In this document: positions 15,101 to 63,514 of the stretch, piece after piece
Layout of the letters: the number at the start of each line of letters is the position of its first letter
How positions within the stretch are numbered: the stretch's first letter is position 1
Assembly: GCA_030390025.1 (NCBI GenBank)
Contig: CM059432.1
Coordinates: 144,212,001-144,276,000, forward strand
Direction: 5' to 3'
Source of the DNA: Squalus acanthias
Taxonomy: Eukaryota
Length of the DNA stretch: 64,000 bases
Notes under the pieces: generated by a model
Database searches by the model: none
Seen by the model: the letters and a program-made list of their open reading frames with translations, nothing else
What the model was told of the DNA's origin: nothing
Translations under genes and position numbers: made by a program

Positions 15101-15189
15101 AAATGAGAAGTCGCACAACACCAGGTTATAGTCCAATAGTTTTATTTAAAATTACGAGCTTTCGGAGCTGCTGCTCCTTCATCAGGTAG
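15101..15189 (-). mobile_element. Short PLE 3'-terminal fragment (family A) with hammerhead motif
   Basis: Near-identical to 18711-18795 in reverse orientation. Confidence 0.85.
15152..15189 (-). ncRNA. Minimal type-I hammerhead ribozyme motif
   Basis: TAC-CTGATGA-A-GGAGC-AGCA-GCTCC-GAAA-GC-TC-GTA. Confidence 0.75.
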
Positions 15190-17020
15190 AGGTCTTTTAT
15201 CTGGGATTGAAGTAAGACTGGTGGGTCCCTGGTGCCTGTGTCTGTTTAGTTCCTCCTTCCTGAATATAGGCATCACATTAGTCCGTGGAAGCAAGTTTGA
15301 ACTGTCAGCACAAAACAAAGGACATAAATATAAAATTTAAAAAAGCCTGATGCAAAATTTAAAATTTAAAGGATTTTTTTCCCCTGGAGGTGTGGGTCTG
15401 GAACAAAGAACTCTCAGATGAAACAGTTAAAGTGTTGTGTCGACTAACATCTTCATAAAAGAGCTGGATAAAGCTCAGGTGATGATTGGGAGTAACTGAT
15501 ACATACAGAGCAGGAGGTGTTAGCTCAGACTGTGTGGACATAATGGTGCAATAATTGGCTTCACCAGATTAGGGAGGTGACAATTGACTTGGACTCGATC
15601 TACCCTAATCCCATTTCCCTGCCCTTTCCCCGTAGCCATTTATATTTTTCCTTTCAAGTCTTTATTCAATTCCCTTTTAAATGTCCTAGTTTCTGCCTCA
15701 ATAGCGACTTCAGGTAAAGATTCCACGTTCTCACAGTTCCCTGAGTGAAAACATTACGTTATTTGAGTGATAATCCCCAGTCTAAACCCCCTTCATAACC
15801 AGTGGGAACAATCTTTCACTGTTTACCCCCTCGCACCTTTTACAAGTTTAAAACCCTCTCATCAGTTGTCAGTTGCTGTTGTTTGTTGATGTTTGTACCT
15901 CCGTGTAAAGAGATTACAGTTTCTCTGCTGGCAAACTAATGGCTCCTGATGTCTGCGCAGCCTCCAAACTAATGGTGATTCTCCAATTGCACTCCCTGTG
16001 TTTAGTAATTACTCCTGGCACAGAGCAAGGCATTTTGGACAAGAGATAGGACAGGTGCAGTGCTGGGTCTGCTTCGAGATCTTTCTGTCTGATCAGTGGA
16101 TGAAAGACATGATCTTCTTTGGATAGAAGACCAGGACTGTTTATAAAAATGGCCCTTCCCAACCATTAGTTACTAATTAAATTCATTGTACCAAATATTA
16201 TTAGGTTATGGGAGAAGCTAAAGGGAAGCTATTTAACTTTCAACAACCTCAGATCAATCAAATGTTTAGCGCAAAACAGGTTTGTCAGAAAAGCAGGAAT
16301 CCTTCAAAACAAAACAAAATTTAGAATAACAGGATCCTGAAAATAGACTAATCGGATTATATCAGATTTGCAGATTCTGTACGTAGAGCTGACTGACTGA
16401 ATTAGTTCTTTCTGTCGATCTTCATATGGCTTTTACTGAAACATGTTTCCAGATCTATAATTGCTTGGTAGTCCTGCAGAGAATATAAATTTCTAATTTG
16501 CATATTTGTTCCTATTTAGTTTGTAATATTTAAAATATGTTGCACCACAAGTATGCTAAAATTAAATCTTGAATCTCCCACTGGGAACTCTAAAATCGAT
16601 CTTCTGTAACCCTTAATCATAGAATCATAGAATAGTACAGCACAGAAGGAGGCTATTCGGCCCATCGAGTCTGCGCTGGCTCTCGAAGAGCAATCCAGTT
16701 AGTCCCACTCCCCCGCTCTTTCCCAATATCCCAGCAATTTTTTTCTCCTTCAAGTATTTATCCAATTCCCTTTTAATGGCGACTATTGAATCTATATCCA
16801 CCACCCTATCAGGCAGTGCATTCCAAATCCTAACCACTCGTTGTGTAAAAAAGATTTTCCTCATGTCGACTCTGGTTCTTTTGCCAATCACCTTAAATCT
16901 GTGGCCTCTCGTTATCGGCCCCTTCAGCCATTGAAAACAATTTCTCCTTGTTTACTCTATCTAAACCTTTCATGAGAAGTCGCACAACACCAGGTTATAG
17001 TCCAACAGATTTATTTAATT

Positions 17021-17058
17021 TTACAAGCTTTCGGAGCTGTCGCTCCTTCCTCAGGTAA
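17021..17058 (-). ncRNA. Hammerhead motif in the inverted PLE arm
   Basis: Reverse complement of 18711-18748. Confidence 0.75.
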
Positions 17059-17664
17059 GTTAGCAGTGAGAGAATCTCCCAGAATTCACAATTTAAACAC
17101 AGACAAAATCTATTCAAATATTTCCCTACATCAAAGACACACTAAGAGCACAGCCAAGACAATGAGATGTGTCCCAGGGGGTCCAACGTGTCAAACCACC
17201 TGCTGGCTGCATATCCTGTCAATTTGTGTTGGTTGTGTTAGTCTTTTTAAAAAAAAAACCACCTGGGAAGACCGGCCATGATGTCAAGTCACGTTCTGTA
17301 TCGTGACATGAACCCGATATCGCGATTGAGGCCATCCTCATGAGTGCGGAACTTGGCTATCAGTTTCTGCTCTATGATTTTGCGCTGTCGTGTATCCCGA
17401 AGGCCGCCCTGGAGAACGCTTACCCGCAGATCCGAGGCTGAATGCCCCTGGCTGCTGAAGTGTTCCCCAACTGGAAGGGAACCCTCCTGCCTGGCGATTG
17501 TTGCGCGGTGTCCGTTCATACGTTGTCTCAGTGTCTGCATGGTCTCGCCGATGTACCATGCTCTGGAGCATCCTTTACTGCAACGTATCAGGTAGACAAC
17601 GTTGGCCGAGTCACATGAGTATGTACCGTGTACCTGGTGGGTAGTGTCCTCACGTGTGATGATG

Positions 17665-18477
17665 GTACACAGGATCTGCTCAGACGAGGAGGAACGCGAT
17701 GGACACCTACGGACACTGAAAGACGCCCTCGTAAGAACAGGATATGACGCTCGACTCGTCGATCGACAGTTCCGACGGGCCACAGCGAAAAACCGCATAG
17801 ACCTCCTCAGAAGACGAACACGGGACACAACCAACAGAGTACCCTACGTCGTCCAGTACTACCCCGGAGCGGAAAAACTACGCCATGTTCTTCGCAGCCT
17901 TCAACATGTCATCGATGACGACGAACACCTTGCTAAGGCCATCCCCACGCCTCCACTACTCGCCTTCAAGCAGCCGCCTAACCTCAAAAGTACCATCGTT
18001 CGCAGCAGATTACCCATCTTTCAGGAGAACAGCAACCAAGACACCACACAACCCTGCCACGGCAACCTCTGCAAGACATGCCAAATCATGGACACAGATA
18101 CCATCATCACACGTGAGGACACTACGCACCAGGTACACGGTACATACTCATGTGACTCGGCCAACGTTGTCTACCTGATACGTTGCAGTAAAGGATGCTC
18201 CAGAGCATGGTACATTGGCGAGACCATGCAGACACTGAGACAACGTATGAACGGACACCGCGCAACAATCACCAGGCAGGAGGGTTCCCTCCCAGTCGGG
18301 GAACACTTCAGCAGCCAGGGGCATTCAGCCTCGGATCTGCGGGTAAGCGTTCTCCAGGGCGGCCTTCGGGATACACGACAGCGCAAAATCATAGAGCAGA
18401 AACTGATAGCCAAGTTCCGCACTCATGAGGATGGCCTCAATCGCGATATCGGGTTCATGTCACGATACAGAACGTGA
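17665..18477 (+). CDS. PLE ORF C-terminal part: RT thumb/linker, Cys-rich linker, GIY-YIG endonuclease (5'-truncated)
   Basis: RICS..L...GY, FKQPPNLKSTIVRS, PCHGNLCKTC, NVVYLIRC..C...YIGET..LRQRMNGH, EHF, EQKLI..F.T...GLNRD. Confidence 0.9.
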   Translation, partial: VHRICSDEEERDGHLRTLKDALVRTGYDARLVDRQFRRATAKNRIDLLRRRTRDTTNRVPYVVQYYPGAEKLRHVLRSLQHVIDDDEHLAKAIPTPPLLAFKQPPNLKSTIVRSRLPIFQENSNQDTTQPCHGNLCKTCQIMDTDTIITREDTTHQVHGTYSCDSANVVYLIRCSKGCSRAWYIGETMQTLRQRMNGHRATITRQEGSLPVGEHFSSQGHSASDLRVSVLQGGLRDTRQRKIIEQKLIAKFRTHEDGLNRDIGFMSRYRT

Positions 18478-18710
18478 CTTGACATCATGGCCGGTCTTCC
18501 CAGGTGGTTTTTTTTTTTTTAAAAAGACTAACACAACCAACACAAATTGACAGGATATGCAGCCAGCAGGTGGTTTGACACGTTGGACCCCCTGGGACAC
18601 ATCTCATTGTCTTGGCTGTGCTCTTAGTGTGTCTTTGATGTAGGGAAATATTTGAATAGATTTTGTCTGTGTTTAAATTGTGAATTCTGGGAGATTCTCT
18701 CACTGCTAAC

Positions 18711-18748
18711 TTACCTGAGGAAGGAGCGACAGCTCCGAAAGCTTGTAA
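18711..18748 (+). ncRNA. Minimal type-I hammerhead ribozyme motif in the PLE 3' UTR
   Basis: TTAC-CTGAGGA-A-GGAGC-GACA-GCTCC-GAAA-GC-TT^GTAA; stem I TTAC/GTAA, stem II GGAGC/GCTCC, palindromic stem III AAGCTT. Confidence 0.8.
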
Positions 18749-19111
18749 AATTAAATAAATCTGTTGGACTATAACCTGGTGTGCGACTTCTCATTTTTGT
18801 CCACCCCAGTCCAACGCCGGCATCTCCACATCATAAACCTTTCATGATTTTGAACACCTCTATCAAATCTCGTCTTAGCCTTCTCTGCTCCAAGAAGAAC
18901 AACCCCAGCTTCTCTAGTCTATTCACGTAACTGCATTCCCTATCCCTGGAACCATTCTAGTAAATCTCTTCTGTATCCTCTCCAAAGCCTTCATGTCCTT
19001 CCTAAAGTGCGGTGCCCAGAATTGGACTCAATACTCCATCTGGGGCCAAATTAATGTTTTATATAGGTTTAGCATAACTTGCTGGCTTTTGTACTCTATG
19101 CCTCTATTTAT

Positions 19112-19332
19112 AAAAATGAGAAGTCGCACAACACCAGGTTATAGTCCAACAGATTTATTTAATTTTACAAGCTTTCGGAGCTGTTCGCTCCTTCTTCAGA
19201 CCCTACCTGAAGAAGGAGCGAACAGCTCCGAAAGCTTGTAAAATTAAATAAATCTGTTGGACTATAACCTGGTGTTGTGCGACTTCTCATTTTTGTCCAC
19301 CCCAGTCCAACGCCGGCATATCCACATCATGA
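19112..19332. mobile_element. Non-coding palindromic PLE mini-element with two back-to-back hammerhead cores
   Basis: 88-bp arms 19112-19199 and 19207-19294, 7-nt spacer, then the same tail; CCTCTATTTATAAA duplicated at 19101-19114 and 19333-19346. Confidence 0.9.
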
Positions 19333-19345
19333 CCTCTATTTATAA

Positions 19346-19780
19346 ATGCGGAGATGCCGGTGTTGGACTGGGGTGGACAAAATTGTTATAGTCCAACAGT
19401 TTTATTTTAAATCACAAGCTTTCGGAGTTACAACTCCTTCGTCGGGTGAAGTGAGGAGATACAGAATCGTCAAAGCATATATAGGTAGAGAACAATGCAT
19501 GTATAACTTACAATTGCAGACAACTGAATTCAATCATCCTGACTGTTTATCTGCCGAGGTGTGATAAAGTTAATCAGGTCAGCCAGGAAGGTACCACATC
19601 AAAGACATAGCAAGATACAACTGAGACAATTAGGTGGAATCGCATGGGGTCTAACGTGTCAAAAGCTGCCGTCTGTATGTAAAACGATTAACTTTAAAAT
19701 TTTTACTTTTTTACTGGGAATCACATCTGTGAACAAGCCAACGACGACTCGAGTCCGGATTTATTTATTTATTTATTTAT
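19346..19780 (-). mobile_element. Third PLE 3' fragment (diverged subfamily) with a hammerhead variant at 19412-19449
   Basis: Tail, then TCAC-CCGACGA-A-GGAGT-TGTA-ACTCC-GAAA-GC-TT-GTGA, then ~330 bp of putative UTR and (TTTA)n; TATTTATAAA repeated at 19781-19790. Confidence 0.8.
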
Positions 19781-20419
19781 TATTTATAAAGCCCAGGATC
19801 CCATATGCTTTATTAACTGCTTTCTTAACCTGTCCTGCCAAGTTCAAAGGTTTGTGCAGAAGCACCCCCAGGTCTTTCTGTTCTTGCACCCACTTTAAAA
19901 TTGTGCCATTTAGTGTGTACGGTCTCTCCTCATTCTTCCTACCCAAATGTATCTCTTCACACTTCTCTGTGTTGAATTTCATCTGCTATGTGTCCGCCCA
20001 TTCCACCAGCTTGTCTATGTCTTCTTGAAGTCAATACTAGCTTCCTCACTGTTTACTACACTTCCGTGTCATCTGCAAATTTCGAAATTGTGAAATCTCC
20101 GATACTACAAAATATTAGAGGTGATCTGGGGCTCACTGGGGAAACAGTGACCAAGGAAATGTATCTCAGGAACTGGGTGCAAAGCCTGTGATTTTCTCTC
20201 GAGGTAATCTCTCTGTGAGTGCCCGACTGTGGAATTACCCCAGGGTCCGTGTGTAGTAAAGAACCGACAACAAGCGCCCTCACTATGACACCTCATCACT
20301 GAAACACACCTTTATGTAAGGTTCCCAGATATAGTGCAATATCCACTGTACCAAACTATTTATCAAAGTGTGTCTGCTTCGAGGATTAACTAAATGCTCA
20401 TTAAATTGAATAACATAAT

Positions 20420-21179
20420 GGCCCAGAAATTCGGCTCCCTGGCTTCCCGCGGGTGCAAGGATCGCGCGCGCACCTACCTACCGCGCCTGCCGCTGACCTC
20501 TGGGCCCACGGGGACTTCAGCTCCTGGGCCTCCTGCAGCTGCCGGCGCGCAGTGCTTGTGTATCCCAGGGGCGTAGTTAGTGCGATGCGTCCCCTGGGAT
20601 CACGTGGGCCATGGAGAGCCAATGGCAGCAGACCATCTTTCATTCACAGATTTGACAGGAAGACGTCAAATCTATGAATTGAAATCGGCTCCAAAACAAC
20701 ACCTAAACTTCAAATAAATTTTTTTTAAAACCATCACATTTTTAAAATAACTATGGTTAAATAAATTAACTACTTTAAACAAAAATTTAAATTTTGGAAA
20801 AATTTAAATGCTTTTTAACAGTGCTAAAAATAAACTTACCTTTCTTTAAAGTATCTAAAAAAGATAAACCTGTTGAAAAATTTTTTAATTGTAATTAATT
20901 AACCACTTACCTTGTTAAAAACAGGTCTTGCGCCTCCTTTTTAAAAGCGCAGCTTCTTCATACTTACCCTCCCAGAGAAACCTGAAAAAAACCCGAAGCT
21001 CGCTGCGTGCGCGCAGCCTCTCCCGCGCACGCGGTTCACCTATGAACCGCCCCCTTCACCAGACCGGAAGTTCCGGTTTCCCGCGCATGCGCAGTGCATG
21101 CAGGAAACCGGCACTTCAGGTGGCCTTACGGGTGAGTACACAGCGCGTACTCACCCGGCAAGTGCCGAATTTTTGGCCC
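20420..21179. mobile_element. Non-autonomous Harbinger-type MITE
   Basis: TIRs GGCCCAGAAATTCGGC / GCCGAATTTTTGGCCC (14/16 match), flanks AAT/ATT, CpG-rich ends around an AT-rich core. Confidence 0.8.
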
Positions 21180-21669
21180 ATTACTGCAGAAATCTGAAAC
21201 GAAGAACAGAAAATGCTGGAAACACTCAGCAGATCAGACAATGTCTGTACCAGAAAGGAAAATTGTTGTAGTTTCAAGCAGACCCTTCACCAGTTCTGCT
21301 GCTGCCTGACTTGGTGTTTCCAGCACCTTTTGCTTTTGACCACCGCACACTACTAGCTTAGATAAACCACTTGGGGAAATATGCTCCACTTCTGGAAAGG
21401 AAGGTGTTAATCTCCTTTTACATTGTAGAACTAAACATTGACAACTTGAAGTGGATTTCTCCTCTGTTTCCCACTGTGTGTTGTAAAATGTTTATCTGCA
21501 TGTATAATCAGCACCAAATCCCAGCCTCCCACGTGCTCTTGTAATGATGCTCATTTCTCATTTCTCAAATGCCTCGACACTTGAAGTTGTATAAACAAGT
21601 GGCACAGACAGAGATACAGATACAGTCAGTGATGCCCTGTATCTTGGGGAAATGAGCAGTAAGGTAAAA

Positions 21670-21765
21670 TTAAAATAAAAACAGGAATTGCTGGAAATAC
21701 TCAGCATCTGTGGAGAGAGAAACAGAGTTCACGTTTCAGGTCAATGACCTTTGATCAGAACTGGT
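21670..21765 (-). mobile_element. PLE-type terminus family B with decayed hammerhead; an older copy lies at ~21185-21335
   Basis: AGTT-CTGATCA-A-AGGTC-ATT-GACCT-GAAA-CG-TG-AACT (G8 and H17 mutated). Confidence 0.65.
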
Positions 21766-22435
21766 AAAGCTGTAACTGCTGCTATTGCTGGTTGCTTTGC
21801 GTAGTATTCTGTGCTGTCCCCTTGTAGATACCAGGAATCACCTCAGCCATAAACGTTAAGGGCAGTGGTGCCCATCTCTGCCCCTGGGAGCGCCCCTATA
21901 GGTCTTGTGTACCAGATGGCATCACTCATTCGCAGTGTTACTCATCATTCACCGCTCCTCTGTGAGGTTCAGTAGCTGACTCTGTTCTCTTTTGCTTTTG
22001 GGTAGTTTTTGCTCTCAGTGGATAGTCTTCTGTGCAATCGACGCTTCTCGATCCACCTCTCTTGCCATATCAATACTATGATGTATCCAACAAACTTCCC
22101 TACACCTATTCTATGAAGCTCAAAGGATTGTTCCGTCAAAATCTTCCATCAATATAATAACTCCAGCTCTGTGTGTCAGTTAGAACTCCATAGTCCTTTA
22201 GATTCTACTCATCATACTATTTTTCACGATAGGTCATTAACAAAACTTTAATAAGCCGTAACCAGCAATTATTTGTTTACCAAAGACAACACGTATTTTT
22301 GAGAAATCTGCATAATAAAAGAAATGGCCGTAACATCTTAAAAAACAGGTTCCTACTTCTTTTAACACACAAAGAGGGAAAATATATCCCACAGTGATCA
22401 GTTTCTTGATCGAAAAACCAATGGTTGATTGACTC

Positions 22436-23020
22436 AGTTTCTCCAATGTCCAGTAATGTCTCTCCAATGTCCAGTGATGTCTCTCCAATGCCCAGTGATG
22501 TCTCTCCAATGTCCAGTGATGTCTCTCCAATGTCCAGTGATGTCTCTCCAATGTCCAGTGATGTCTCTCCAATGTCCAGTGATGTCTCTCCAATGTCCAG
22601 TGATGTCTCTCCAATGCCCAGTGATGTCTCTCCAATGTCCAGTGATGTCTCTCCAATGTCCAGTGATGTCTCTCCAATGTCCAGTGATGTCTCTCCAACG
22701 TCCAGTGATGTCTCTCCAATGTCCAGTGATGTCTCTCCAATGTCCAGTGATGTCTCTCCAATGTCCAGTGATGTCTCTCCAATGTCCAGTGATGTCTCTC
22801 CAATGTCCAGTGATGTCTCTCCAATGTCTAGTGATGTCTCTCCAATGCCCAGTGCTATTTCTCCAATGCCCAGTGATGTCTCTCCAATGTCCATTGATGT
22901 CTCTCCAATGTCCAGTGATGTCTCTCCAATGTCCAGTAATGTCTCTCCAATGTTCAGTGATGTTGTCTCTCTAATGTCCAGTGCTATTTCTCCATTGTCC
23001 AGTGATGTTGTCTCTCCAAG
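22436..23020. repeat. 21-bp minisatellite TCTCCAATGTCCAGTGATGTC, ~27 copies
   Basis: Direct tandem repeats. Confidence 0.97.
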
Positions 23021-23555
23021 GTCCAACGGCAATAGGTTTACTGGAGGACCTGAAGACTCCTCTACTGAGTTGTCTTCCAGAATTTTGATCATCATATTGC
23101 AGAACAGAAACCACTGTTGGATACAATTCCAAAAACTTCCATCAGTCATCTGTAATCATGAACATTCTAAGGATTTTTTTTCTCATGCAAAGAAATCAGT
23201 CATTTGTTTTGTGAGAAAACAAATTCTCTCAGTGTGGTCACAAGCTGAGCTAACAAGAGAAACAGTTCCGTCTGTTTCAATCCCACAGCTGATGAGCAAT
23301 TTCTCTTTGTATTGTATTTAGTTAAAGTCTGTAACTGTGAAGCAGTCTTCTGCCCAGAGTGCACCCGCGTGCCTGCTGTAAGGAAGTGGTGTTGAAAGCC
23401 AGACATTTACTTAAAAGGAGCCATGATTATTTTAGGATTAAACATTGGCTGCCAAAATCTGAACTGTATGTATGAAAGAAATATTTTAAAAGCGTATTAA
23501 ACATCAGGAATCCTCGGTGGAATTGACATTTAACAGAAGAATATACTGCACATAC

Positions 23556-23905
23556 CATGAGGGGTTTTGATAGAGTAGATAGGGAAAAACCGTTTCCAGT
23601 GGAGGGAGGGTGGGTAACCAGAATACACAGATTTAAGATAAATGGCAAAAAAGCCAAGGGGGAGATGAGGAGCAATTTTTTTATGCAGCGAGTTGTTGTG
23701 ATCTGGAATGCACTGCCTGAAAGGGTGGTGGAAACAAATTCAATAGTAACTTTCAAAAGGGAATTGGCTATATACTTGAAAAGGAAAGATTTGCAGGGCT
23801 CCGAGAAAGAGCAGGGGGTAGTGGGGCTAATTGGAGAGCTCTACCAAAGAGCCGGCATAGGCACTAAGGGGCAAATAGCCTTATGTGCTGTATCATTCTA
23901 TATTG
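23556..23905 (+). mobile_element. CR1 3' fragment
   Basis: MRGFDRVDREK.FP..NFFMQRVVVIWNALPERVV. Confidence 0.9.
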
Positions 23906-24004
23906 TATGGGAGGAAGTCAGTTTTTAAGCGATGTTCTTGACACATTTGTTTGTCATGGTCTGAACGACACCACATTACGGCCCTTCTTGTTGTTGCTTG
24001 TCAT

Positions 24005-25096
24005 CGCACCAATGCAGGTGAGGCTGTGGATTGCACCAACGCAGGTGAGGCTGTGCATGGCACCAATGCAGGTGAGGCTGTGAATTGCACCAACACAGGT
24101 GAGGTTATGCATCACACCAATGCAGGTGTGGCTGTGCATTGCACCAATGCAGGTATGGCTGTGCATGGCACCAATGCAGGTGATGTTGTGCATTGCACCA
24201 ACACAGGTGAGGCTGTGCTTTGCACCAATGCAGGTGTGGCTGTGCATTACACCAACGCAGGTGAGTCTGTGAATTGCACCAATGCAGGTGAAGCTGTGTA
24301 TTGCACAAATGCAGGTGTGGCTGTGAATTGCACCAATACAGGTGTGGCTGTGAATTGCACCAATGCAGGTGTGGCTGTGCATTGCACCAATACAGGTGTG
24401 GCTGTGAATTGCACCAATGCAGGTGTGGCTGTGCATTGCACAAATGCAGGTGTGGCTGTGAATTGCATCAATACAGGTGTGGCTGTGAATTGCACCAATG
24501 CAGGTGTGGCTGTGCATTGCACCAATACAGGTGTGGCTGTGAATTGCACCAATGCAGGTGAGGCTGTGCATTGCACCAATACAGGTGTGGCTGTGAATTG
24601 CACCAATGCAGGTGAGGCTGTGCATTGCACCAATACAGGTGTGGCTGTGAATTGCACCAATGCAGGTGAGGCTGTGCATTGCACCAATACAGGTGTGGCT
24701 GTGAATTGCACCAATGCAGGTGTGGCTGTGCATTGAACCAATACAGGTGTGGCTGTGAATTGCACCAATGCAGGTGTGGCTGTGCATTGAACCAATACAG
24801 GTGTGGCTGTGAATTGCACCAATGCAGGTGAGGCTGTGCATTGCACCAATACAGGTGTGGCTGTGAATTGCACCAATGCAGGTGTGGCTGTGCATTGAAC
24901 CAATACAGGTGTGGCTGTGAATTGCACCAATGCAGGTGTGGCTGTGCATTGCACCAATGCAGGTGAGTCTGTGAATTGCACCAACGCAGGTGTGGCTGTG
25001 AATTGCACCAACGCAGGTGTGGCTGTGAATTGCACCAACGCAGGTGTGGCTGTGAATTGCACCAACGCAGGTGTGGCTGTGCATTGCACCAACGCA
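24005..25096. repeat. 27-bp minisatellite TGCACCAATGCAGGTGTGGCTGTG(A/C)AT, ~40 copies, with a 54-bp dimer structure
   Basis: Direct tandem repeats with alternating variants. Confidence 0.97.
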
Positions 25097-26289
25097 ACCC
25101 CATTTTTTGCTATGAGGATTACTTTGTTTTTTCTCATCTACCTTCTTCTGGCTAATATTTATCCCTTAAGCAACATCACTGAAACAGATTATCTGGTCAT
25201 TTGTCGCATTGCTGTTTGTGGGAGTTTGCTGTGCGCATATTGACATTTCCTACATTACATTGGGCTGTTGTCATCCAGGGAATATACTGCTAGTCGATCA
25301 GCTTGCCACTCAATTCTTTGTTTAAGGATTTGACTGTAACCCAGTAATCCAATCTGCTCAGACACTGATACACTATTTATCTGAAACGGAATGTGTCCCC
25401 CTACTGATCAGTTCACTGGATGTAGTGGGACACCTCTGAGGTGAACCTGGATACAGTAAAACCTTCAAACACAGGTGAGGCTGTGCATTGCACCAACACA
25501 GGTGAGGCTGTGCATTGTACCAACACGGCTCCAATTTTTGCTACGAGGTTCACTTTGTTTATTCTCATCTACCTCCTTCTGGCCAATATTTATCCCTTAA
25601 GCAACATCACTGAAACAGATTATCTGGTCATTTGTCTCATTGCTGTTCATGGGCGCTTGCTGTGCGCAAATTGGCTGCTGCGTTTCCTACATTACAACAG
25701 TGACTACACTCCAAAAGTACTTTATTGGTTGTAAAGCACTTTGGGACGTCCTGAGGCTGTGAAAGGCGCTGTATAAATGCGAATTCTTTCTTTCTACCCC
25801 AATGAAGATAATTGTTGAGGAGCAGCCTCGGTCCCAGTCACAGTGGTTTACTCCCCAGAAAACGACTGCATTGAGGGTTCAGAATGTTCCTTTGATCTCC
25901 CAGTAGACATCTGGCATTGGAAGATCAAAGGCGGCGTTGTAATCTACCCAGCTCTGGTGCTGCTGCTAGAGTCATTCCTGCTGCTGCTCAGAGATCACAG
26001 CACCTATACTCCCCAATCTGCTTCTTCCATCTTTTGAATTTGCTTGGTTTTAAAAAAATAGATGGAAATGCCGACTATTTCCACATATCTGCCTCTCTGC
26101 TGCTTTAATTCCAATTCACGGTTTTCATTTTATCTCTCTGCTTTTATTCTGCTCACGTGTTATTATCTATTGCTCAGATTATGAGCTAGTTTCTCGTTTT
26201 GCTGTTTCCATCTCCTGCCTCCGTTCCGCCTCCCCTTCCTCCTGCTCCCTGTTTTATCGCAACCTTGGTGTCATATGTGACCCTGAAAT

Positions 26290-38134: not shown

Positions 38135-38629
38135 TAGTGCTGGCTGTTAAGGCCCGTTTTGGTAAGAAAAAATGGCAGCCGCCTCACTTCCGCCGGGTCC
38201 CGTGGCGGCCGCCACTTTTGGCTGGTCGGCAGCGCTGCCGATGTCTGTACTTGCTGGAGATATGTACATTATGCAGACCGTAACGTCAGTGAGTGTGCAA
38301 TGCTCACCTGATGCCCGATCTGCCATTTTCACGTTTGCCGCTCCACTTACCGGCCTGTGTTAATTACAACCAGCTGAGCAAACGTTGACAAGCGGGAAGG
38401 AACCTCCAGCAGCGATATTTAAAGGGATCATCAGCAACAACTTGCAGCTGACACGTTTCTTCAGTTTGACCGGCTCTGTGCAACTTTCTGCAACTCTTGC
38501 CGCTTTCTAAACTTGTTTCAAGTTCCTGAGGTGACCGGGAGTGTTGGTGGAAGTGGAGAACGCCTTCATTCTCATTTAAAGGCTTCTGTTCACAACACTG
38601 GAGAGGGCGCAGAGGCAGCAAAGAAGACG

Positions 38630-39670
38630 AGAAGATGCTCGCAGAGGGAGGAGGAGGAGGGGCAGGAGGGTTCTCAACAGGAGGACTTACCCACCGAGGG
38701 TCTTCAGAGAGCACTTCTCTTATATCCACTTAAGCCAGGAGCAGTGCATTAGGAGGCTCTGCTTCACCAAGGAGGTGGTCACAGAACTCTGCCACCTCCT
38801 GCAACCAGACCTGCAGCCTCAGAACAAGGCGACCACAGCTCTCCCAGTGGCCCTCAAGATCACCGTGGCCCTCAATTTCTTCGCCAGCGGCTCCTTCCAG
38901 TCTGCAGCAGGAGACATAGCTAACACCTCCCCATTCATTGTCCATTGCATCCGGGAGGCTCTCTACTCCAGGAGAAAGAGCTACGAGAAGCAGGAGGAGT
39001 GCACATGTGGCTTTGCCAGGCTAGCGGGCTTCCCCATGGTGCAGGGCACCATCGACTGCACCCATGTGGCTTTGCGGGCGCCGTATACCAATCCTGAGAT
39101 CTTCCGTAACCGCAAAGACTGCCACTCACTCAATGTGCAGTTGTTGTGCGACCACGCCCAGCGCATCATGATGGTCAATGCCCGCTATCCTGCCATCATC
39201 CTGTGCCAGTCCGCTGTGCCAGCAATCTTCCAGGAAACCACGTCAAACCCGAGGGTGGCTGCTCGGAGACAAGGGCTATCTGCGCTGCACCTGGCTGATG
39301 ACTCCCCTCTGCAACCCCACCACTCCTGCCCAGCACTCATATAATGACAGCCATGCTGGCACCAGGAACATCATCGAGCAGACCATCGGCATGCTCAAGC
39401 AACGGTTCCGTGGCCTTGACCGCTCGGGAGGAGCCCTCCAGTACTCGCTGGAGCAGGTGTCCCATTTTATGGTGGTCTGCTGCATGCTTCACAACTTGGC
39501 CATCATGAGGGCGCAGCCATTGCCAGCAGCGATTGCGGGACCACCTCAGGAGGACGAGGAGGAGGAGGAGGAGGAGAAGGAGAAGGAGGAGGAGGAAGAA
39601 AAAGTGGAAGAGGAGGATGATGAGGAGGTGGGATGTCTGTGAGCGCCTCATCAGACTCCGGTTCCAATGA
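38630..39670 (+). pseudogene. Harbinger (HARBI1-family DDE) transposase, frameshifted with deletions
   Basis: LNFFASGSFQ, GFPMVQGTIDCTHV, FRNRK..HSLNVQLLCD, WLLGDKGY, RNIIEQTIGMLKQRFR.LD, CCMLHNLAI. Confidence 0.92.
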
Positions 39671-39842: not shown

Positions 39843-41722
39843 CTAATCACCCTTGTGCAATCCCTTAGTGCCTGGCGTTCGGGTGCCCTGTCCTACTCTA
39901 GTGCGCCTACACAGTGCTCCCCCAGTGGCTGCAGCACGGCTGGTTGAAGGCTGCTGAGTTTCCATGGGGGAGATTACAGATGGCCTTGCAGGACGGCCTC
40001 GAACAGCTCTGGACCGAGAAGGCCTGGCTGTAGACCGCACCACCTTGGCATGGGCAGCAGCAGTCTGGGCTGGCTGGCTGACAGGCAGCAGCAAGGGCAA
40101 TGGCGGAGCGGCAGTGGTGGGAGTAGGAATGCTGTCATCCTGAGAGAAGACAGCAGGTTCCTGCTCCACAGACCCACTGCCAGTCCTCTGGGATGGCGCC
40201 TCAGCATTCTTAGCAATCTGTTGGAGGACAGATTGTTGGCCTGCTGCGACACCCTGCAAGCCCCTTTCGAGACTCAAAAACCCAATGACGATGGCAGCAG
40301 TCTGAGCTTCCACTGCAGCACTGTGACGTTGGGCGGCTTCCACCTCTGCTGCAATGGAAGCCATGACATCGTCCATCACACGCAGCATCATGGCTTGGTC
40401 CACAAGGTCTCTCCTGGAGTTGTTCATCATTTCCAGCCTGGAAATCATGGGCTCCAAACTCTGCGCAAAGCCCCGTCCAATATTGGGGCCAGACTTCTCT
40501 ATGCTCCTTGACATTGACAAGAGGCTCTCTGGCAGGCTTGCCATTGCACCAAGCATTTCCGTGTGCATGCTCATCACTCTTCATCTGAAGGCCGCCACAT
40601 CGAGGTCTTCATCTGAGTCCAGTGGAGCAGAACTCGTGCACGAACTCGCCCTCTGGGGAGCTGGGACTTGAGCTACCCTTTCCCCCTGACCTAGCTGCAG
40701 CCCACTTGTGCCCGGTGACTCACCATGTGCAGATCCCACCTCTATAACACCCTCTACATTCCACGTAGTGCCAGTTTCTGAGCTGGTGTCTGCAAGTGTC
40801 AGACGCAGTGGCGGTGTGTCTTCTTCTTCATCTCCATTCTCCTCCATGACTTAAGGGACAGGCTGCGCTGGTGGCAGTTCTTGGTTATCTGAAAGCAGAA
40901 AGGTACAACAGTCGAGTTGTGGTGAAGGGAGGGGTGGCAAAAGCAAGACATCCATGCACACACCATCAGCAGCTTGTAAGTGAGAAGAGATTGTGGGATG
41001 AGGGGGAGGTGGGATGCGAGAAGAAGGATTAGGAATGACCATACCGTTGTTGTCCCCAAGGGCTTCAACTTCGCCCGTTGCCATGGCCCCGGTGACTTTC
41101 CCTCCAATGATGTCGAGCACCGTCTCCTCCAGTCGGCTCAAGGTGTCTAAAGCGGCTTGGCTGCCTCCCGTCTGCTGCTGATCCCTCCTGTTCTGTGACA
41201 CCTTGGCCTGAAAGAGAAAGGGAAGTGTGTCAGTGAGTGTGGTGCAATGTGTTTGGGTGATGTGCCTGCCATAGTTGAATAGCTGCCAGTGTGTGCAAGG
41301 TCTGAGATGTGGGTGTGAGTGTTGCAGCAGTGGTAAGGTTGTGAGGGTGAAGTGAAGCTATGATTGTGAGGTCTGAGCGGTGATAGGCAGAGATTGTTGG
41401 TAGGTGAGTGATGGGGGTGTGGTGCATTGAGCAGTGTGTGAGGCTTTGTGGTGCAGATGGTGGGATATGGCATTTACTGAAGTCCTCACTCACCTTGACC
41501 TGCCGTGTGAGGTCATTAAACTTCTTTCGGCACTGGATCTAGGTCTGTCGTTCAACGCTGTTGGCCATGACGTACGTAGCTATCTCTTGCCAGAGCTTTC
41601 TGCAAGTGGCCTTTGATGGCTTCCTACTACCCTACCCGCCTTCTCTCCACTGCCACTACCAATGCCTTGAGAGCTGCATCCGAGAAACTTCTGGCTCGTT
41701 CTCTGTGTTGCTGCTCAGCCAT
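39843..41722 (-). pseudogene. Harbinger Myb/SANT gene; exons 41722-41494, 41207-41045, 40888-39843
   Basis: MAEQQHRERARSFSDAALKALVVAVERRR..QCRKKFNDL; same intron positions and 163-nt exon 2 as copy 1; in-frame stops. Confidence 0.82.
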
Positions 41723-46780: not shown

Positions 46781-47119
46781 TGGTGCTTTTCCAAATAGGC
46801 AGAGCAGGGCCTGTGCTTTCAATGTTAATGAGGTAGAAAGATGTTCCCAACCCTCACACCACTCGTACTGCAACCAAGAGATGTCCATTTCCAGTGGCAC
46901 CCGCCTGAAAGCTGGCCCTCGGCTTTACACTGGACCTTCGACTGGAGTGCATCATCACCCCCAGCAACCAAATTTTAATTGAATTTATTAAGTTTCATTT
47001 AATGTTTTAAGTTTAGTTACAGTCTATTTGTTTATGGGTTGCTCAAAAAAGTACACTGGACCTTCCTTAGATCAGACGGTCTGACAGGGTCAGGCAGCAA
47101 TGCAAAGCTTGAAGACTGG

Positions 47120-48250
47120 CTGGCTGGGTTGCTAGGGATGGGAGGGAGGAGGCTGGGTTGCTAGGGGTGGGAGGGAGGAGGCTGGGTTGCTAGGGATGGG
47201 AGGGAGGAGGCTGGGTTGCTAGGGATGGGAGGGAGGAGGCTGGGTTGCTAGGGATGGGAGGGAGGAGGCTGGGTTGCTAGGGGTGGGAGTCTGGCTGGGT
47301 TGCTAGGGATGGGAGGGAGGAGGCTGGGTTGCTAGGGATGGGAGGGAGGAGGCTGGGTTGCTAGGGATGGGAGGGAGGAGGCTGGGTTGCTAGGGATGGG
47401 AGGGAGGAGGCTGGGTTGCTAGGGGTGGGAGTCTGGCTGGGTTGCTAGGGATGGGAGGGAGGAGGCTGGGTTGCTAGGGGTGGGAGGGAGGAGGCTGGGT
47501 TGCTGGGGGTGGGAGGGAGGAGGCTGGGTTGCTGGGGGTGGGAGGGAGGAGGCTGGGTTGCTGGGGGTGGGAGGGAGGAGGCTGGGTTGCTGGGAGTGGG
47601 AGGGAGGAGGCTGGGTTGCTGGGGGTGGGAGGGAGGAGGCTGGGTTGCTGGGGGTGGGAGGGAGGAGGCTGGGTTGCTGGGAGTGGGAGGGAGGAGGCTG
47701 GGTTGCTAGGGGTGGGAGGGAGGAGGCTGGGTTGCTAGGGGTGGGAGGGAGGAGGCTGGGTTGCTGGGGGTGGGAGGGAGGAGGCTGGGTTGCTGGGAGT
47801 GGGAGGGAGGAGGCTGGGTTGCTGGGGGTGGGAGGGAGGAGGCTGGGTTGCTGGGGGTGGGAGGGAGGAGGCTGGGTTGCTGGGAGTGGGAGGGAGGAGG
47901 CTGGGTTGCTGGGAGTGGGAGGGAGGAGGCTGGGTTGCTGGGAGTGGGAGGGAGGAGGCTGGGTTGCTAGGGGTGGGAGGGAGGAGGCTGGGTTGCTAGG
48001 GGTGGGAGGGAGGAGGCTGGGTTGCTAGGGGTGGGAGGGAGGAGGCTGGGTTGCTGGGAGTGGGAGGGAGGAGGCTGGGTTGCTGGGAGTGGGAGGGAGG
48101 AGGCTGGGTTGCTAGGGGTGGGAGGGAGGAGGCTGGGTTGCTAGGGGTGGGAGGGAGGAGGCTGGGTTGCTGGGGGTGGGAGGGAGGAGGCTGGGTTGCT
48201 GGGGGTGGGAGGGAGGAGGCTGGGTTGCTGGGGGTGGGTGGGAGTCTGGC
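47120..48250. repeat. 29-bp G-rich VNTR GGCTGGGTTGCT(A/G)GGG(G/A)TGGGAGGGAGGA, ~39 copies
   Basis: Direct tandem repeats with four G-runs per unit. Confidence 0.97.
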
Positions 48251-48259
48251 TGACCTGGT

Positions 48260-48720
48260 GTCTCTGTGCTCGGAGTCGCTTCTTGTCCAGGCTGTGGTCT
48301 CCTTGGTGTTGATGATGTTGCCCTGGTGACGGCGGCTGTTCCTTGCCCGAGTGCGAGAGCGAAGCCCCGGCCCCGCCCGCCACGCACACCCCGAGGCTCA
48401 GGCTCGGGCCTAGGCCCGCCCTGGGGAGCAGGAGGAGGAGGCAGACGGGTGTGAGCGCGGCCTAACATGGCGGTGAAGACCCGGAGTTGGACCAGGAACA
48501 GCCGAGCGCCGCCCGAGGACAGGGAGCGCTGCCCGCCCCCGGGCACTAGGGCCGCGCTGAAGGCGGCCAGCCCGCGGCGGGAGAGGCGCAAGGAGTGCAC
48601 GACCCAGAAGACCAAGCCCTACGTGGTGGGCCACTCCGGCAAATGGGTGACCAGCATCCGCGGCCCGCTCGGCCTCACCGACTCGGCGCTCAGCAGGCTG
48701 GGGACCACCATCCTACTCGG
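48260..48720 (+). promoter_or_regulatory. CpG island / probable promoter and 5' UTR of DPY19L1
   Basis: High CpG density, GC boxes (CCCCGCCC), Kozak-like AACATGG at 48467. Confidence 0.7.
48467..48719 (+). CDS. DPY19L1: DPY19L1 exon 1 (MAVKTRS..LGTTILL)
   Basis: ATG in the CpG island, donor GTGAGA; phase 1 joins exon 2 in frame. Confidence 0.75.
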
Positions 48721-57328: not shown

Positions 57329-57422
57329 GCAAGTTCTTAATGTTTTGTGCATATTTTTATTCCCTGCTTTTTAAATATTTATGCAGGTGGTGAACTGAAA
57401 TCTGTTTTTATTTGTTTGACAG

Positions 57423-57999: not shown

Positions 58000-58650
58000 C
58001 AAATCCACCTGTCATTCCAGGATCATTCCAGAGAGTGAGAACAACCCATGACTCCATTTTCTCCTTGATAGATGCCTCCTTGGAACCCTCTCCCTTGCAC
58101 CTTCCGTTCTCACCTCTTAACATCAGAGGAGCTCATGGATTTCTTTGTCTCAAAGACTGCATCTCCATTAGATGCTACCTCCCCCTTCCCTGCCCTCCTG
58201 TTGTTGACCACATCCTTATCACAACTCCCCTGTCATTTTGCAGCTTCTCTCCCACCTTCCTTCCACTGCCCACTTGGATCTCATAATAGAAATGAGCTTC
58301 ATCTTCTGTCTCTTTGATCCTCTCCCTACCCAACTCATAGCTACTCAACTACCTTTCGTGGTCCCAATGCTAGCTGACATTGTTATTGGCTCCCTCTGTT
58401 TAGGCACTGTCCCACTCCCTTTCAAAACTTTCATGATCACAGCCTCTTCAAAAACCTCACCCTTGACCCCCGTATTGGGCAATCACCAATCTTCCCTCCT
58501 TGTCTTAGGTCCTTGAACATATCGTCACCTCCAAGTGGCATGTTCAGCTCTCTCACAACAATCCATTTGAGTCCCTTTAGTCTGGTTTCCACTCTGACCA
58601 CAGCAATGGAACTGTACTAGTCAGTCACCAACCATATACTCTATGATTGT
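58000..58650 (+). mobile_element. Old degenerate L2-like fragment
   Basis: DPLPTQL..LPFVVPMLADIV..SL..GTVP..FK and SGF...HS remnants. Confidence 0.6.
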
Positions 58651-58654
58651 GGCA

Positions 58655-59290
58655 CTTGTATTCAGCCCTTTGGGAACTCTTTGAAAGAGCTATCCAATTA
58701 GTCCCACTCCCCTGCTCTTTCCTCGTAGCCATGCAAATCTTTCCTTTTCAAGTCAATAGCCAATTCCCTTTTGAAAGTTACTATTGAATCTGCTTCCACC
58801 GCCCTTTCAGGCAGTGCATTCTGACATGAAGCTTGTCATTCATGTGGAAATGACTTATGAAATAATACTGGGCGGCCTGCTGGTGGCACTGTCCAGGGAG
58901 AGTATAAATACTCGGGCATGGGCCCAGCTTGCTCAGGCTATTCTTTAACAGGAACTAGTGAAGGACACAACTAGATCTCCATGTTGAAAAACAGTTGATT
59001 AAAGCTTTGTTTAACGCTTAGACCAAGTGCCTAGTAGTTTTCTTACATCACATTCCAGATCATAACAACTTGCTGCATAAAAAAAGTCTTCTCATCTCCC
59101 ATCTGGTTCTTTTGCCAATCATCTTAAATCTGTGTCCTCTGGTTGCCAACCCACCTGCCAGTGGAAACAGTTTCACCTTATTTACTCTATTAAAACCCCT
59201 CAATTTTGAACACCTCTATTAAATCTCCCCTTAACCTTCTCTACTCTAAGGAGAACAAGCCCAGCTTTCCTAGTCTCTCAGATAATGAAG
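58655..59290 (-). mobile_element. CR1 3' fragment split by a ~230-bp insert
   Basis: Matches 16680-16975; CATTC repeated at the junctions. Confidence 0.7.
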
Positions 59291-59519
59291 CCGTCTACGC
59301 GCACAAAGGAAACATTTTTGAATTTAGAAATTAAGCTTGTTTGAACAAATTACATAGATGAGATAGGAATGGATTACATTTCAAAGCTTACTTGTGCCTC
59401 CTTCACTTGTTTTCCACATTCACTTCTTCCTGATTTTTATCTCCTATCGATATAATTTAGAAATGAATCTGTAGTAGTAAATTACGGGAGTAAGATGTTA
59501 AATTTACTGTTAGTGCCCC

Positions 59520-59780
59520 AGTGAGAAGCTGAGCCATATAAATCAGAGCATCCCACCTTTGCTGCCTGGTTTGTGCTAAGTTAGCTGATGTCAGCCAGGG
59601 CAATGGTAAGGGTGCTGCAATTGGTCTCAGTTTCTCTGCTAGAGGGGGAAATCAGCCATGGTTCCTGTTCCTGATTGCTACCCAGTGACCCCCGTTGGAA
59701 GTGTGTGTGTGTGTTTGGTGCGGATAGCGTTGAGCCTGGCTGTGTTTCTCTGTACCACTGAATGCTTGCACTCATCACCA
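59520..59780 (+). mobile_element. Probable degenerate SINE (different family)
   Basis: Decayed tRNA-like head and (GT)n; recalled similarity only. Confidence 0.4.
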
Positions 59781-60394
59781 TGGTGACCTACATTACAACA
59801 GTGACTACACTTCAAAAGTACTTCATTGGGTTATAAAGTGCTTTGGAACATCCTGAGGTCGTGAAAGGCGCTATTTAAATGCAAGTCTTTCTTGAATAAT
59901 GCAAGGTACTGGAGGACACTTATAGAACAGTACCTCAGCGAGGAGTGCCTTCGAGGGAGAGAAAAATAAATGTACTCTTGCTTGATGTGGATTAACCTCT
60001 CCAAATGTTATATATTTGGTAAGATCTTCAGTGAGTGTACTAAATGGCACAAGCCTAATGCTGACCGGTTTAATCAGTTTGCACACTGAACCTTATGTGT
60101 TCATAATGGCAATAACCTCCCTTTTGTTTGTGTATTTCCAGCTCCACATTTTTAATCAATAAAATGTAAAGTCCACGTGGAGATCTATAATGCATTTAAT
60201 TTGGCAGATGTACTTCACCTTCCTAATGTGTTCAGTAAGAAAAGTTTAATGACTAGAATTTAAAACTTTGAGAACTTTCAGCAACTGCAAGGAACCAATA
60301 AAGTTGTTTAATTTACAAAAAAAACCTCTCACACTTGTTTCACACATCGTAATCAAAAGTAAAACTAGGAGTTTTAAAATTATAGGTAGTGCCT

Positions 60395-60630
60395 AGAAGT
60401 CATAGAATGATGCAGCACAGAAGGAAGCCATTCGGCCCATCGTGCCTGTGCCGGCTCCTTGAAAGAGCGATCCAATTAGTCTCACTCCGCCTGCTCTTTC
60501 TCCATAGCCCTGCAAATTTTTCCCTTTCAAGTATTTATCCAATTCCCTTTTGAAAGTTACTATTGAATCTGCTTCCACCGCCCTTTCAGGCAGTGCATTC
60601 CAGGTCACAACAACTCGCTGAGTTTAAAAA
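60395..60630 (-). mobile_element. CR1 3' end
   Basis: WNALPERAVEADSIVTFKRELDKYL. Confidence 0.88.
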
Positions 60631-62189
60631 AAAAATCATTTTTGATATTTAAAGTTCTCTTTCCATTGAGCTGCTTTCAATCAGGTTGTTTTATTTTACT
60701 TTCAAAAGTGTTTAAGCCTGTTAAATGTTGAGTAATCCACAGAGCTGGAGAGGGAAAACCTGCAGGATTTTTATTACCTGCTGACAGTTAACTCCCTCTC
60801 AATGGCTCTGGACCCGGATCTTTGCCTCGCTACTTCCTGTATTGCTAATCTGCTTTGCGGATTGGATTTGCTGCTTGCATTTCACAGATTTTTAATACCC
60901 TGATGTAGTAGTATATCTATTGTACACATCCAACGTATTTAAAGAGGAACTCCTGGAAGATTACCAGTCGGAGGGGAAGCAACACCACTGAAACTCGCCT
61001 CTAATCCAGTGTGAAATGACAGTTGACAAATATAATGTGGAAAATTAACCATGTGATGGAAACAGCTATTACAAAATTATTAGTGTTTTAAGTGTCATTT
61101 AATAGCCCCTTCCCTCTATCCTTCCCCTACTCCCCAGCCCCAGTGAAAGAGGAGGTGCCAGGCCATTATCAGTCTGTTAAGAATAGGGCAGAATGCATAG
61201 ACTTTAACTTCACATTTTATGAATAGAATCATCCTTTGTGATGAGGCACAATACCTGATGCACAAAAAATGTGCGTTTGGAAAGGTCCACAGTGACTTGA
61301 TATATCATAAAATCTGAATACCTTTAAATAGTTCATATTTACATCACGACTTCATATCTGCAACACAAGTGCTGCCTATCTATCAATTGTACCCTTAACT
61401 AAGAAAAGAAACAACTTCAAGACGTCCCAAAGCTTTTTACAGCCAATGAAGTGCTTTTGAAGTGTAGTCACTGTTGTAATGTAGGAACAGCGGCGGCTAA
61501 TTTGCACACAGCAAGCTCCCATAAACAGCAGTGTTGTAAATGGTCAGATAATCTGTTTTTGGCGGTGTTGGTCGATGGATAAATATTGGTCTGGAAACTG
61601 GGGAGAACTCCCCTGCTCTTCTTTCAGATAGTGCCATGGAATCTTTTACATCCACCTGAACAGGAGGATGGTTACTTGAAGTGTTAGTGTGGACTGTAGG
61701 ATAATGTTTGGGTAGAGGCTGTCGGATGGGTTATAGGAGATGAGATTCAGTCTGTGCAGGATGTTAATCAGTGCAAAGAGGAAACATTTCCTGGCCACGA
61801 GGTGAATGCAGGGAGGACTGTACAAAATAAATAGACTCTGTTTTTCTTTAATGGGGCTTATGCTTTAGTCCTGGTGAGTCTCGTGTGACAAGAAGAGTAT
61901 TTCTTGACATTGATATTGTAATTAACCTGTTTCTCTGTTTAAATTGTGTCCGGTGATATAATGTGCAGCAAAATGTGGAGTGAATTGAATCCTTTCATGG
62001 GTTGGATAGCAGCAAGGGCAGATGTGCTTAACTCCACCAGAGGGCACTCCTGTTGGACAAACCCAGCATCGTAGCATCTACTGATACCTGGTTTTTTTCG
62101 ATCATTGTGTTTTTAGAGTTAATTGAAAGCAGCTTTTTCCCCTTTTAAGCTGGATGTTGTGTTTTGTGCACTCTATTCAATTCCATGGC

Positions 62190-62765
62190 GGTGGGGGTCT
62201 GGAACTCGCTGCCTGAAAGGGTGGTAGAGGCAGAACCCTCATCGCATTCAAAAAGTACCTGTACTTGGATATGCACTTGAAGTGCCGTAACCTGCAAGGC
62301 TACAGACCAAGAGCTGGAAAGTGGGATTAGGCTGGAGAGCTCTTTTTCAAACGGCGCAGGCACGATGAGCCGAATGGCCTCCTTCTGTGCCGTAAATTTC
62401 TAGGATTCTATGATTTGATCTTCTCTAGCCTGTTGATAGGTGTATTACACCCTCAACTTGCTCATATCTGTTTAGATTCACAAGGAGACATAGATACAAG
62501 ATTAAATGTAAGAGATTTAGGGCAGCGACCAGGAGAAACTTTTTTGTACAGAGGGTTGTGAGGCTGTGGAATCACTACTGGAGTTAGTGATTGAAGCAGA
62601 GACTATTTAAGAACAGGTTCGATAAGTGATTGAAGGAAAGGGGAATAAAGGGATATGGGAGCAGCAGGTACGTGGGATTAGGACACTGCTCCTGTGGAGA
62701 ATAAACACCAGCACGGACTGGTTGGGCCGAACAGCCTGTTTCCTTATTGTAATTTCTATGTAATT
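62190..62765 (+). mobile_element. Two CR1 3' fragments
   Basis: WNSLPERVVEAE.. and NFFVQRVVRLWN.. each with a CR1 3' UTR. Confidence 0.8.
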
Positions 62766-63338
62766 AATTTGTGTACTTATACTTATTTGCCTGTTACCCG
62801 TCTGATGTCCTCTCTTTGCCAATTTATCTAGTTTACTAGCTGTATATTTAATGGTCTCTCTTATCTGGGTGATCTGCTTAGCCTCTTCCCAAATTTATTT
62901 TCAAATTGTAGACATAACCTCCAACTTGAAGGGGAGCTCCACAGAATGGATCAGTTGAAAACGTCACAGTATTTCTGGTTTTGAAAACAGGATCCTTGCG
63001 GGTTTCAGTAAAGCTAAACTTCACAGGGTCTATTTTATGAAGACAGATTGAATTTCTATTGGTTTCTAAACAGGCTAACTATAGAACAAACAGTGGCAGT
63101 TACTGGATGCTCTCTGACAGCCTCACCATATTACCTGAAACCAACAGAGTAGGCTGGCTTTAAGTATTGGATGAAATGGCTTTATAAAAATATTCTAATC
63201 TAGTTGAGATAGCCAGATCACCAAATATTTGATCATGTTTTCCTCCCAAAGAACTGGTCAGTTTAAATTCTATAGCTCTTTGGTCAGGCTTACTGTGTAT
63301 TTCCAGCATTTTATTTTAGCCCTAGTATATATTTATTA

Positions 63339-63514
63339 CAAAAGCAAAATACTGCAGATGCTGGAAATCTGAAATAAAAACAGAGAATGCTGGAAATACT
63401 CAGCAGGTCAGGCAGCATCTGTGGAGAGAGAAACAGAGTTAACGTTTCAGGTCGATGACCCTGCGTCAGAACTGACGAAAGGTCATTGACCTGAAACGTT
63501 AACTCTGTTTCTCT
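63339..63514. mobile_element. Family B PLE-type palindromic mini-element with two hammerhead cores, in DPY19L1 intron 6
   Basis: 43-bp arms 63427-63469 and 63472-63514. Plus core CTGACGA-A-AGGTC-ATT-GACCT-GAAA-CG-TT-AACT; minus core AGTT-CTGACGC..GAAACGTT-AACT. Confidence 0.75.

Follow-up and report, generated by a model that had tools for sequence, protein, structure and literature searches.

Two families of Penelope-like elements in the window

The window analysed here, a stretch of 64,000 nucleotides from Squalus acanthias (assembly GCA_030390025.1, contig CM059432.1, positions 144,212,001 to 144,276,000 of the forward strand), carries copies of two families of Penelope-like elements (PLEs), here called A and B, and short copies of both end at the front edge of a hammerhead ribozyme motif. 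Family A has one long member in the window (16972-18834) and family B is present as short pieces only. Across the genome, exact tail words of the two families number 15,478 and 16,138, respectively. Positions within the elements are counted from the C of CUGA in the hammerhead (position 0), negative numbers lying upstream. Copies are listed below, with identities to other genomic loci (L numbers) where these are close.

12465-12528, minus strand: family B fragment from +49, downstream of the hammerhead (counter-example)
15100-15193, minus strand: family A (A3-type) solitary tail-less arm, -8 to +84, 95% to L179
16972-17667, minus strand: family A1 inverted tail-less arm, -605 to +83, continuing through the hammerhead (core from 17054)
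17668-18834, plus strand: family A1 main arm with 5'-truncated open reading frame (ORF) end, 3' untranslated region (UTR), hammerhead and tail, continuing through the hammerhead
19112-19199, minus strand: family A1b inverted tail-less arm, 0 to +86, 99% to L171
19200-19333, plus strand: family A1b main tailed arm from -7 (19200), CUGA at 19207, same edge sequence as L171
19346-19760, minus strand: older family A (A2-like) copy, continuing past the hammerhead to at least -324 (counter-example)
21189-21290, minus strand: old, diverged family B copy, 5' end unmapped
21673-21764, minus strand: family B solitary tail-less arm, about -6 to +97
63339-63474, minus strand: family B main tailed arm, -5 to +130, 98% to L158
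63472-63514, plus strand: family B short inverted arm, 0 to +42 (43 nt), joined via a 3-nt overlap

All copies in the window are single or head-to-head. The preliminary description of this DNA had drawn a pattern of breakage at the ribozyme from four insertions, and all four are present and end at the front edge of the minimal-hammerhead motif. Four further insertions had gone uncited, of which two continue past the motif, one starts at +49 and one is too old to map, so that 4 of 8 insertions in the window break at the edge. Several details of the four ends also needed correction. The solitary arm at 15100-15193 reaches -8 when compared with its own subfamily, rather than stopping about 3 nt past the core; its next upstream base is G, which also lies within a 7-bp flanking duplication (15091 and 15193). 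The 7 nt taken as a gap between the arms of the 19112-19294 palindrome (19200-19206) are templated element sequence of the main arm, -7 to -1, as in L171, with no spacer; the G preceding this main arm is common to the inverted arm, and a 14-bp target duplication lies at 19101 and 19333. For the pair at 63427-63514 the 2-nt gap was seen, but the main tailed arm is on the minus strand and longer than described (to -5), and the gap lies in a CAG-TT-CTG mini-palindrome, so that the ends can be placed only within -5 to 0. The copy given as 21670-21765 runs from 21673 to 21764 and ends at about -6. In the long family A insertion the arms extend past the motif to -605 and about -1047; its main arm holds the linker and endonuclease region, a stop at 18477 and CUGA at 18715, and a 14-bp target duplication lies at 16962 and 18834. 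Three family A insertions are packed within 2.8 kb (16962-19340), two of them inside one CR1-type long interspersed nuclear element fragment, and another PLE palindrome nested in a PLE 3' UTR was found elsewhere in the genome (L192/L193). An Rfam mir-1597 match in the window is the 19112-19294 palindrome.

In both families a single ORF combines a reverse transcriptase (RT) with a C-terminal GIY-YIG-type domain, the arrangement of endonuclease-positive PLEs, and includes a C-x4-C-x2-C linker conforming to the CX2-5CxxC motif. A Pfam search found RVT_1 (E 2e-8) in an 858-aa frame of a genomic family A copy (L284) and a GIY-YIG match in family B (E 2e-4, just under the cut-off), and returned no GIY-YIG match for the family A proteins. 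The predicted linker and GIY-YIG-type end point to the Neptune (or Nematis) group as outlined in the available text of PMC8557442. The two families had been called unrelated, but over 202 aa their C-terminal proteins share 33% identity and, judged by these translations, the families are distantly related; only the DNA of their pseudo-long terminal repeats (pLTRs) is not alignable, the ribozyme motif being its sole common part. The motif has the CUGANGA and GAAA boxes, helix II, a helix I of 3-4 bp and the palindromic helix III stub of minimal type I hammerheads. No hammerhead family was matched in an Rfam scan, and the call rests on the boxes, helix II and helix I.

Each family has two fixed 3' ends, at about +85/+118 in A and +97/+133 in B, and in family A the ATG, at about +117, sits at the tail end. 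In the genomic sample described below, 47/67 family A and 24/70 family B copies have next to them an inverted arm that stops ~35 nt before the position of the tailed end. A direct upstream pLTR, the mark of a partial tandem, was present in 19/30 A1 loci picked at the ORF N-terminus (family A only), and no full-length family B copy was recovered among the genomic loci fetched. These insertions are endonuclease-positive PLEs with minimal hammerheads, a known kind going by the accessible parts of PMC4209133 and PMC8557442, and not a new kind of element.

5' ends cluster at the front edge of the hammerhead

The genomic sample consisted of the first 70 exact tail matches per family on one contig (C1), chosen irrespective of upstream sequence; three family A loci were dropped (two duplicates, one nested), leaving 67 copies of A and 70 of B, biased to younger copies with an intact tail word. 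We mapped the 5' ends on long copies of several subfamilies because a single reference creates a false boundary at -6: with one family A reference a false peak appeared there, the subfamilies differing between -246 and -6. A long-pLTR query returned the 40 best-scoring long copies only and was unfit for breakpoint mapping, and 80 evenly spaced 10-kb genome stretches held too few copies and served mainly as background.

Main-arm 5' ends fell at -9 to +1 in 19/67 family A copies against 2.1 expected and in 17/70 family B copies against 1.9 expected, a peak of about 9-fold in each, the expectation being the pooled rate at +2 to +60 and -60 to -10 and the bin having been set after the data were seen, though following the earlier claim. 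Inverted arms behaved likewise (A, 21/47 against 2.1 expected; B, 10/24 against 0.8 expected), and the Poisson p was below 1e-7 for all four sets. Per nucleotide, the hazard of ending at -9 to +1 was 0.041-0.042 in main arms and 0.065-0.092 in inverted arms; most neighbouring bins gave about 0.002-0.008. Across the genome, short dead copies of both families that end a few bases 5' of the hammerhead run into the thousands. The clustering of short-copy 5' ends at the front edge of the hammerhead is real and a uniform spread is excluded, as the preliminary description had anticipated in proposing that breakpoints would be enriched at the ribozyme. Its placing of the break upstream of the core, away from the predicted cleavage site, also holds: that site is the start of 2-3/67 family A main arms and of 0/70 in family B. 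Three family A copies starting exactly there (L241, L273, L343) are a possible trace of in vivo cleavage and at most a weak hint of it. The inverted arm is absent in 9/17 family B edge ends, and fold-back is therefore not required for an end at this place.

The fine structure of the peak is sharpest in subfamily A2. Among the family A main arms 11/67 start from exactly -7, one from -8 and none from -9 to -16. Genome-wide, exact A2 matches with a non-element base just upstream numbered 2147 (-6), 3332 (-7) and 535 (-8), where about 27 of the first 100 rows at -7 are continuing copies with a single-nucleotide polymorphism and some of the 535 are in fact starts at -7 preceded by C by chance. The A2 ends thus form a one-base wall at the A of TCACTTC (A-7). 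The A2 element base at -8 is C, yet G was found there in 52/73 junction rows by eye and in 18/30 in a scripted check of the first 30 rows; before a -6 start G occurred in only 17/100 rows. With a background G frequency of 0.28-0.31, the excess before A-7 has p 7e-8 even at a background of 0.40. At A2 loci not selected at this site the base before A-7 was G 14, C 5, A 3 and T 1 times (G 14/23), while 64/87 arms reaching -7 continue. At some palindromic A2 junctions both arms reach -7 with an extra base on each, and both family A edge copies in the window (15100-15193 and 19200-19333) show G then A at -8 and -7. Family B has G before A-4 in 28/47 rows (by eye; background 0.39, p 0.003), a weaker signal than in A2. 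The peak base is A in both families and sits in a match to the initiator consensus YYANWYY (TCACTTC in A2, CCAGTTC in B).

Proposed run-off at the RNA 5' end and rival explanations

We consider it reasonably probable that the short-copy ends mark a capped RNA start from which RT, having begun internally some 125 nt downstream, ran off. The short copies would then be ordinary target-primed insertions of two endonuclease-bearing PLEs, with the predicted RNA start 4-8 nt upstream of the hammerhead CUGA. Published PLE facts, taken together, suggest that RT would begin internally, 90-135 nt from the RNA 5' end, and the run-off complementary DNA (cDNA) would accordingly be 90-135 nt long and end in a C copied from the cap. 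A single cDNA of this kind, once joined to the target, would leave a stub; two, one per nick and joined end to end, would leave the small palindromes; a jump onto another template would give a mini-tandem, and trimming or microhomology at joining would spread ends into the motif. The ribozyme would lie near the break because it is located at the RNA start, not as the cause of the break. What we observed in support is the pile-up of ends, the A2 wall at A-7, the excess G, the target duplications and the two fixed 3' ends. Three published systems, as far as the available text of each goes, supply the remaining parts. RT of PAc, the Poseidon element of Anolis carolinensis, begins synthesis internally at two sites delimiting the tail and elongates both of the nicked strands (PMC11167929); D. 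virilis Penelope is driven by an initiator-type promoter inside its pLTR (PMC2377424); and in L1 and SVA the copying of the cap leaves an untemplated G at the 5' junction (PMC4859970).

Template jumping was examined in an independent set of 30 A2 loci picked at the tail-ORF junction (L361-L390), of which 13 leave the ORF after 73-173 nt into a second unit. Seven of these second units begin at -7 to -9, which is where they should begin if RT jumps when it comes to the end of the RNA, and four at -62 to -73. The mini-tandems look like template jumping, and there may be a further RNA 3' end or RT start.

A fixed run-off point bears on how tandem and inverted PLE insertions arise and on the role of the hammerhead. 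If the ends are run-off ends, the start of vertebrate PLE transcripts could be predicted to the nucleotide from DNA sequence alone, and the genome would hold a fossil map of the PLE RNA start. Such a point would also tie the internal RT start, demonstrated only recently, to the product most often seen in the genome, make the two arms of an inverted insertion separate cDNAs with a common end point, and place the ribozyme at the very front of the RNA.

Several observations weigh against an RNA start at this position. In 22 RNA runs, all of them contigs of guessed kind, no start site and no informative joints were seen. The D. virilis start lies ~120 nt upstream of the hammerhead (371 compared with the intron end at 491) in the available text of PMC2377424 and PMC4209133. 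In subfamilies A1b, A1c and A3 the ends in 100 rows inspected by eye spread over about -4 to -15 with no single-base peak and no fixed G, and the G plus A predicted at -8/-7 was not found there. Family B starts at -3 (51 rows) are as common as at -4 (47 rows), and the family B peak (-5 to +1) coincides with the 5' edge of helix I (-4). The extra G often belongs to the target duplication or to the arm on the other side and may have been selected rather than being untemplated; RT can also add C at any template end, and some junction rows are the two strands of one junction. Finally, only 1/35 ORF-bearing copies starts at the peak (0/19 A1 with an upstream pLTR, 1/16 A2 with at least 985 nt of ORF). 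Because such copies rarely begin there, RNAs or template switches extending further upstream must be common.

Among the 16 A2 ORF-bearing copies, 4 start at -59 to -67. A second A2 cluster of 5' ends spans -59 to -80 at a short hairpin-capable sequence (L370, L372, L374, L377, L384, L387, L388, L390, L182, L184) and could be the upstream start of ORF-bearing RNAs.

One alternative, which we hold to be possible though unlikely, retains the transcript start and adds a second copy of it. PLE RNAs might carry the stretch from start site to tail, including the hammerhead, at both ends, like a retroviral R region, and the stubs would be integrated strong-stop cDNAs. A strong-stop cDNA would be transferred by homology to the 3' copy, from which RT would run on upstream. 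If true, this would account for partial tandems, for pLTR regeneration with no need of circular RNA and for the rarity of ORF-bearing starts at the site, and the conserved position of the hammerhead would be the first few bases of the transcript. However, G is absent from -8 in all 27 continuing copies whose base there is not C, a hint against such a transfer.

The preliminary description had itself proposed that the folded ribozyme triggers RT arrest or template switching. We do not favour this and think it a doubtful account, whether the cDNA snaps back or is released after the 5' strand of helix I is copied, or a protein-bound ribozyme blocks RT. The same edge is hit in A and B, whose pLTRs share the motif alone; the family B peak matches the helix I edge; the second A2 cluster (-59 to -73) lies at a small hairpin-capable sequence; and the hazard inside the motif is raised, 0.008 per nt at +2 to +30 against 0.002 at +31 to +60 just downstream (four- to five-fold), which leaves room for a minor role for RNA structure. 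RT moves 3' to 5' on the RNA, however, so a structural block should produce stops at about +30, at the 3' strand of helix I where RT would first meet the fold. In A2 the peak is instead a wall one base wide, 3 nt beyond a helix I of 4 bp, with an excess of G; helix I is only 3-4 bp in family A and in several predicted folds, most A2 arms reaching the wall read on through it (the 64/87 above), and catalytic hammerhead mutants left PAc insertion products in vitro unchanged, according to the accessible part of PMC11167929.

A bias at the joining step is improbable as the source of the peak. Here short palindromes or repeats at the edge would favour fold-back or end-to-end annealing of randomly ending cDNAs, and candidates are indeed present (CAG-TT-CTG in B, GTAC in A3, a CTTC repeat in A2). 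Many junctions show recurring microhomology, the window junction at 63472-63474 uses its mini-palindrome, and joining bias by mini-palindromes does shape the exact junctions. Microhomology, however, displaces ends by a few bases and does not produce a nine-fold excess bounded so abruptly on its upstream side. The extra G/C is foreign to the element, tandem jumps out of the ORF arrive at -7 to -9 too, and the family B edge ends without an inverted arm speak against such a bias as well.

The other proposal made earlier, that the stubs are a self-propagating non-autonomous mini-element, retrozyme-like or resembling a short interspersed nuclear element (SINE), with its own fixed 5' end and mobilised by PLE proteins, we regard as very unlikely. 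One junction type recurs in 4/100 rows, tandem mini-dimers exist, and animal retrozymes derive from PLE pLTRs according to the available text of bioRxiv 10.64898/2026.07.22.740005. Short copies, on the other hand, are not nearest neighbours of each other in excess (8/19 against 7.1 expected, p 0.43; 5/17 against 5.9, p 0.55), nor do they form a lineage of their own with shared ends, as a SINE-like element would. Their junctions are mostly distinct (29/34 and 17/20), stubs are present in every subfamily, no tandem arrays beyond dimers occur among 140 tail-anchored loci, and the 5' ends are found upstream of the core, whereas a retrozyme monomer is delimited by the cleavage site. Equally remote is a 3' splice site at the 5' end of helix I, where the available text of PMC4209133 puts the end of the D. 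virilis Penelope intron: family B does have a branch-point-like CTAAC, a pyrimidine run and a CAG ending at -3, but family A lacks an AG at the edge, B copies end at -4/-3 inside the CAG, target duplications abut directly with no upstream exon, and no GT..AG joint occurs among the listed joints of the RNA contigs (43 further joints lie outside the listing).

Relation to known elements and further observations

The comparisons that follow apply to the available text of the papers cited. Both families resemble other endonuclease-positive PLEs (PMC8557442, PMC2377424) in their ORF with RT and C-terminal GIY-YIG, partial tandems, tail-less inverted arm, target duplications, heavy 5' truncation and 30-40 bp tail; truncation is described there as variable, however, and neither a peak at the hammerhead edge nor an extra G is reported in those portions. 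PAc (PMC11167929) likewise has two RT start sites that bound the tail and extends both strands; a shorter RNA 5' end gave a shorter product there, and hammerhead activity was dispensable. The PAc ORF starts inside the hammerhead, in contrast to the family A ATG at the tail end, and that paper, in the part available, maps 3' ends and not genomic 5' ends or a transcription start. The motif agrees with the minimal type I hammerheads of metazoan PLEs (PMC4209133) in its boxes, the extra base after A9, the palindromic 15.2-16.2 and the short helix I, and there too most copies are single with some opposite-strand pairs. That study proposes cleavage and circles and, as far as its accessible text goes, maps no breakpoints, whereas the ends described here are found upstream of the core, away from the cut site.

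In L1 and SVA an additional G at one 5' position has been taken as the trace of a copied cap (PMC4859970), and the G before A-7 in A2, and more weakly that before A-4 in B, would correspond to it. There the G is a sign of full-length copies, whose priming took place at the RNA 3' end, and here it marks the shortest copies, because priming would be internal and close to the RNA 5' end. Non-LTR (long terminal repeat) retrozymes are also PLE pLTR-derived, non-coding and equipped with a type I hammerhead, but form tandem arrays with a hammerhead per unit (bioRxiv 10.64898/2026.07.22.740005); the stubs are single or head-to-head with no lineage of their own, only dimers occurred among the fetched loci, and the stubs are not non-LTR retrozymes as defined in the available text of that work. 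A literature search, which covered few subscription papers and supplements, found no paper mapping PLE 5' ends to the hammerhead front edge.

Three features of the element sequences lie apart from the peak. The A2 3' UTR (about -300 to -250; L194, L279, L108) holds a 45-nt piece ~89% like the family B pLTR (window 63388-63432), which suggests an old chimera between the two families. The family B pLTR (seen on the minus strand at window 63339-63474 and in long copies, for example L146) has three acceptor-like pyrimidine-AG sites at about -2, +50 (then ATG) and +100. Several family B fragments begin at +49 (window 12465-12528, L078, L101).

Elsewhere in the window, 38580-39642, 1626-3296 and 39843-41357 contain what we take, from their motifs, to be fragments of a Harbinger-type transposase and its Myb/SANT-like partner. 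Large minisatellites occupy 6023-11563, 22311-23089, 23884-25100 and 46977-48400, with units of 19-20, 21, 27 and 29 nt.

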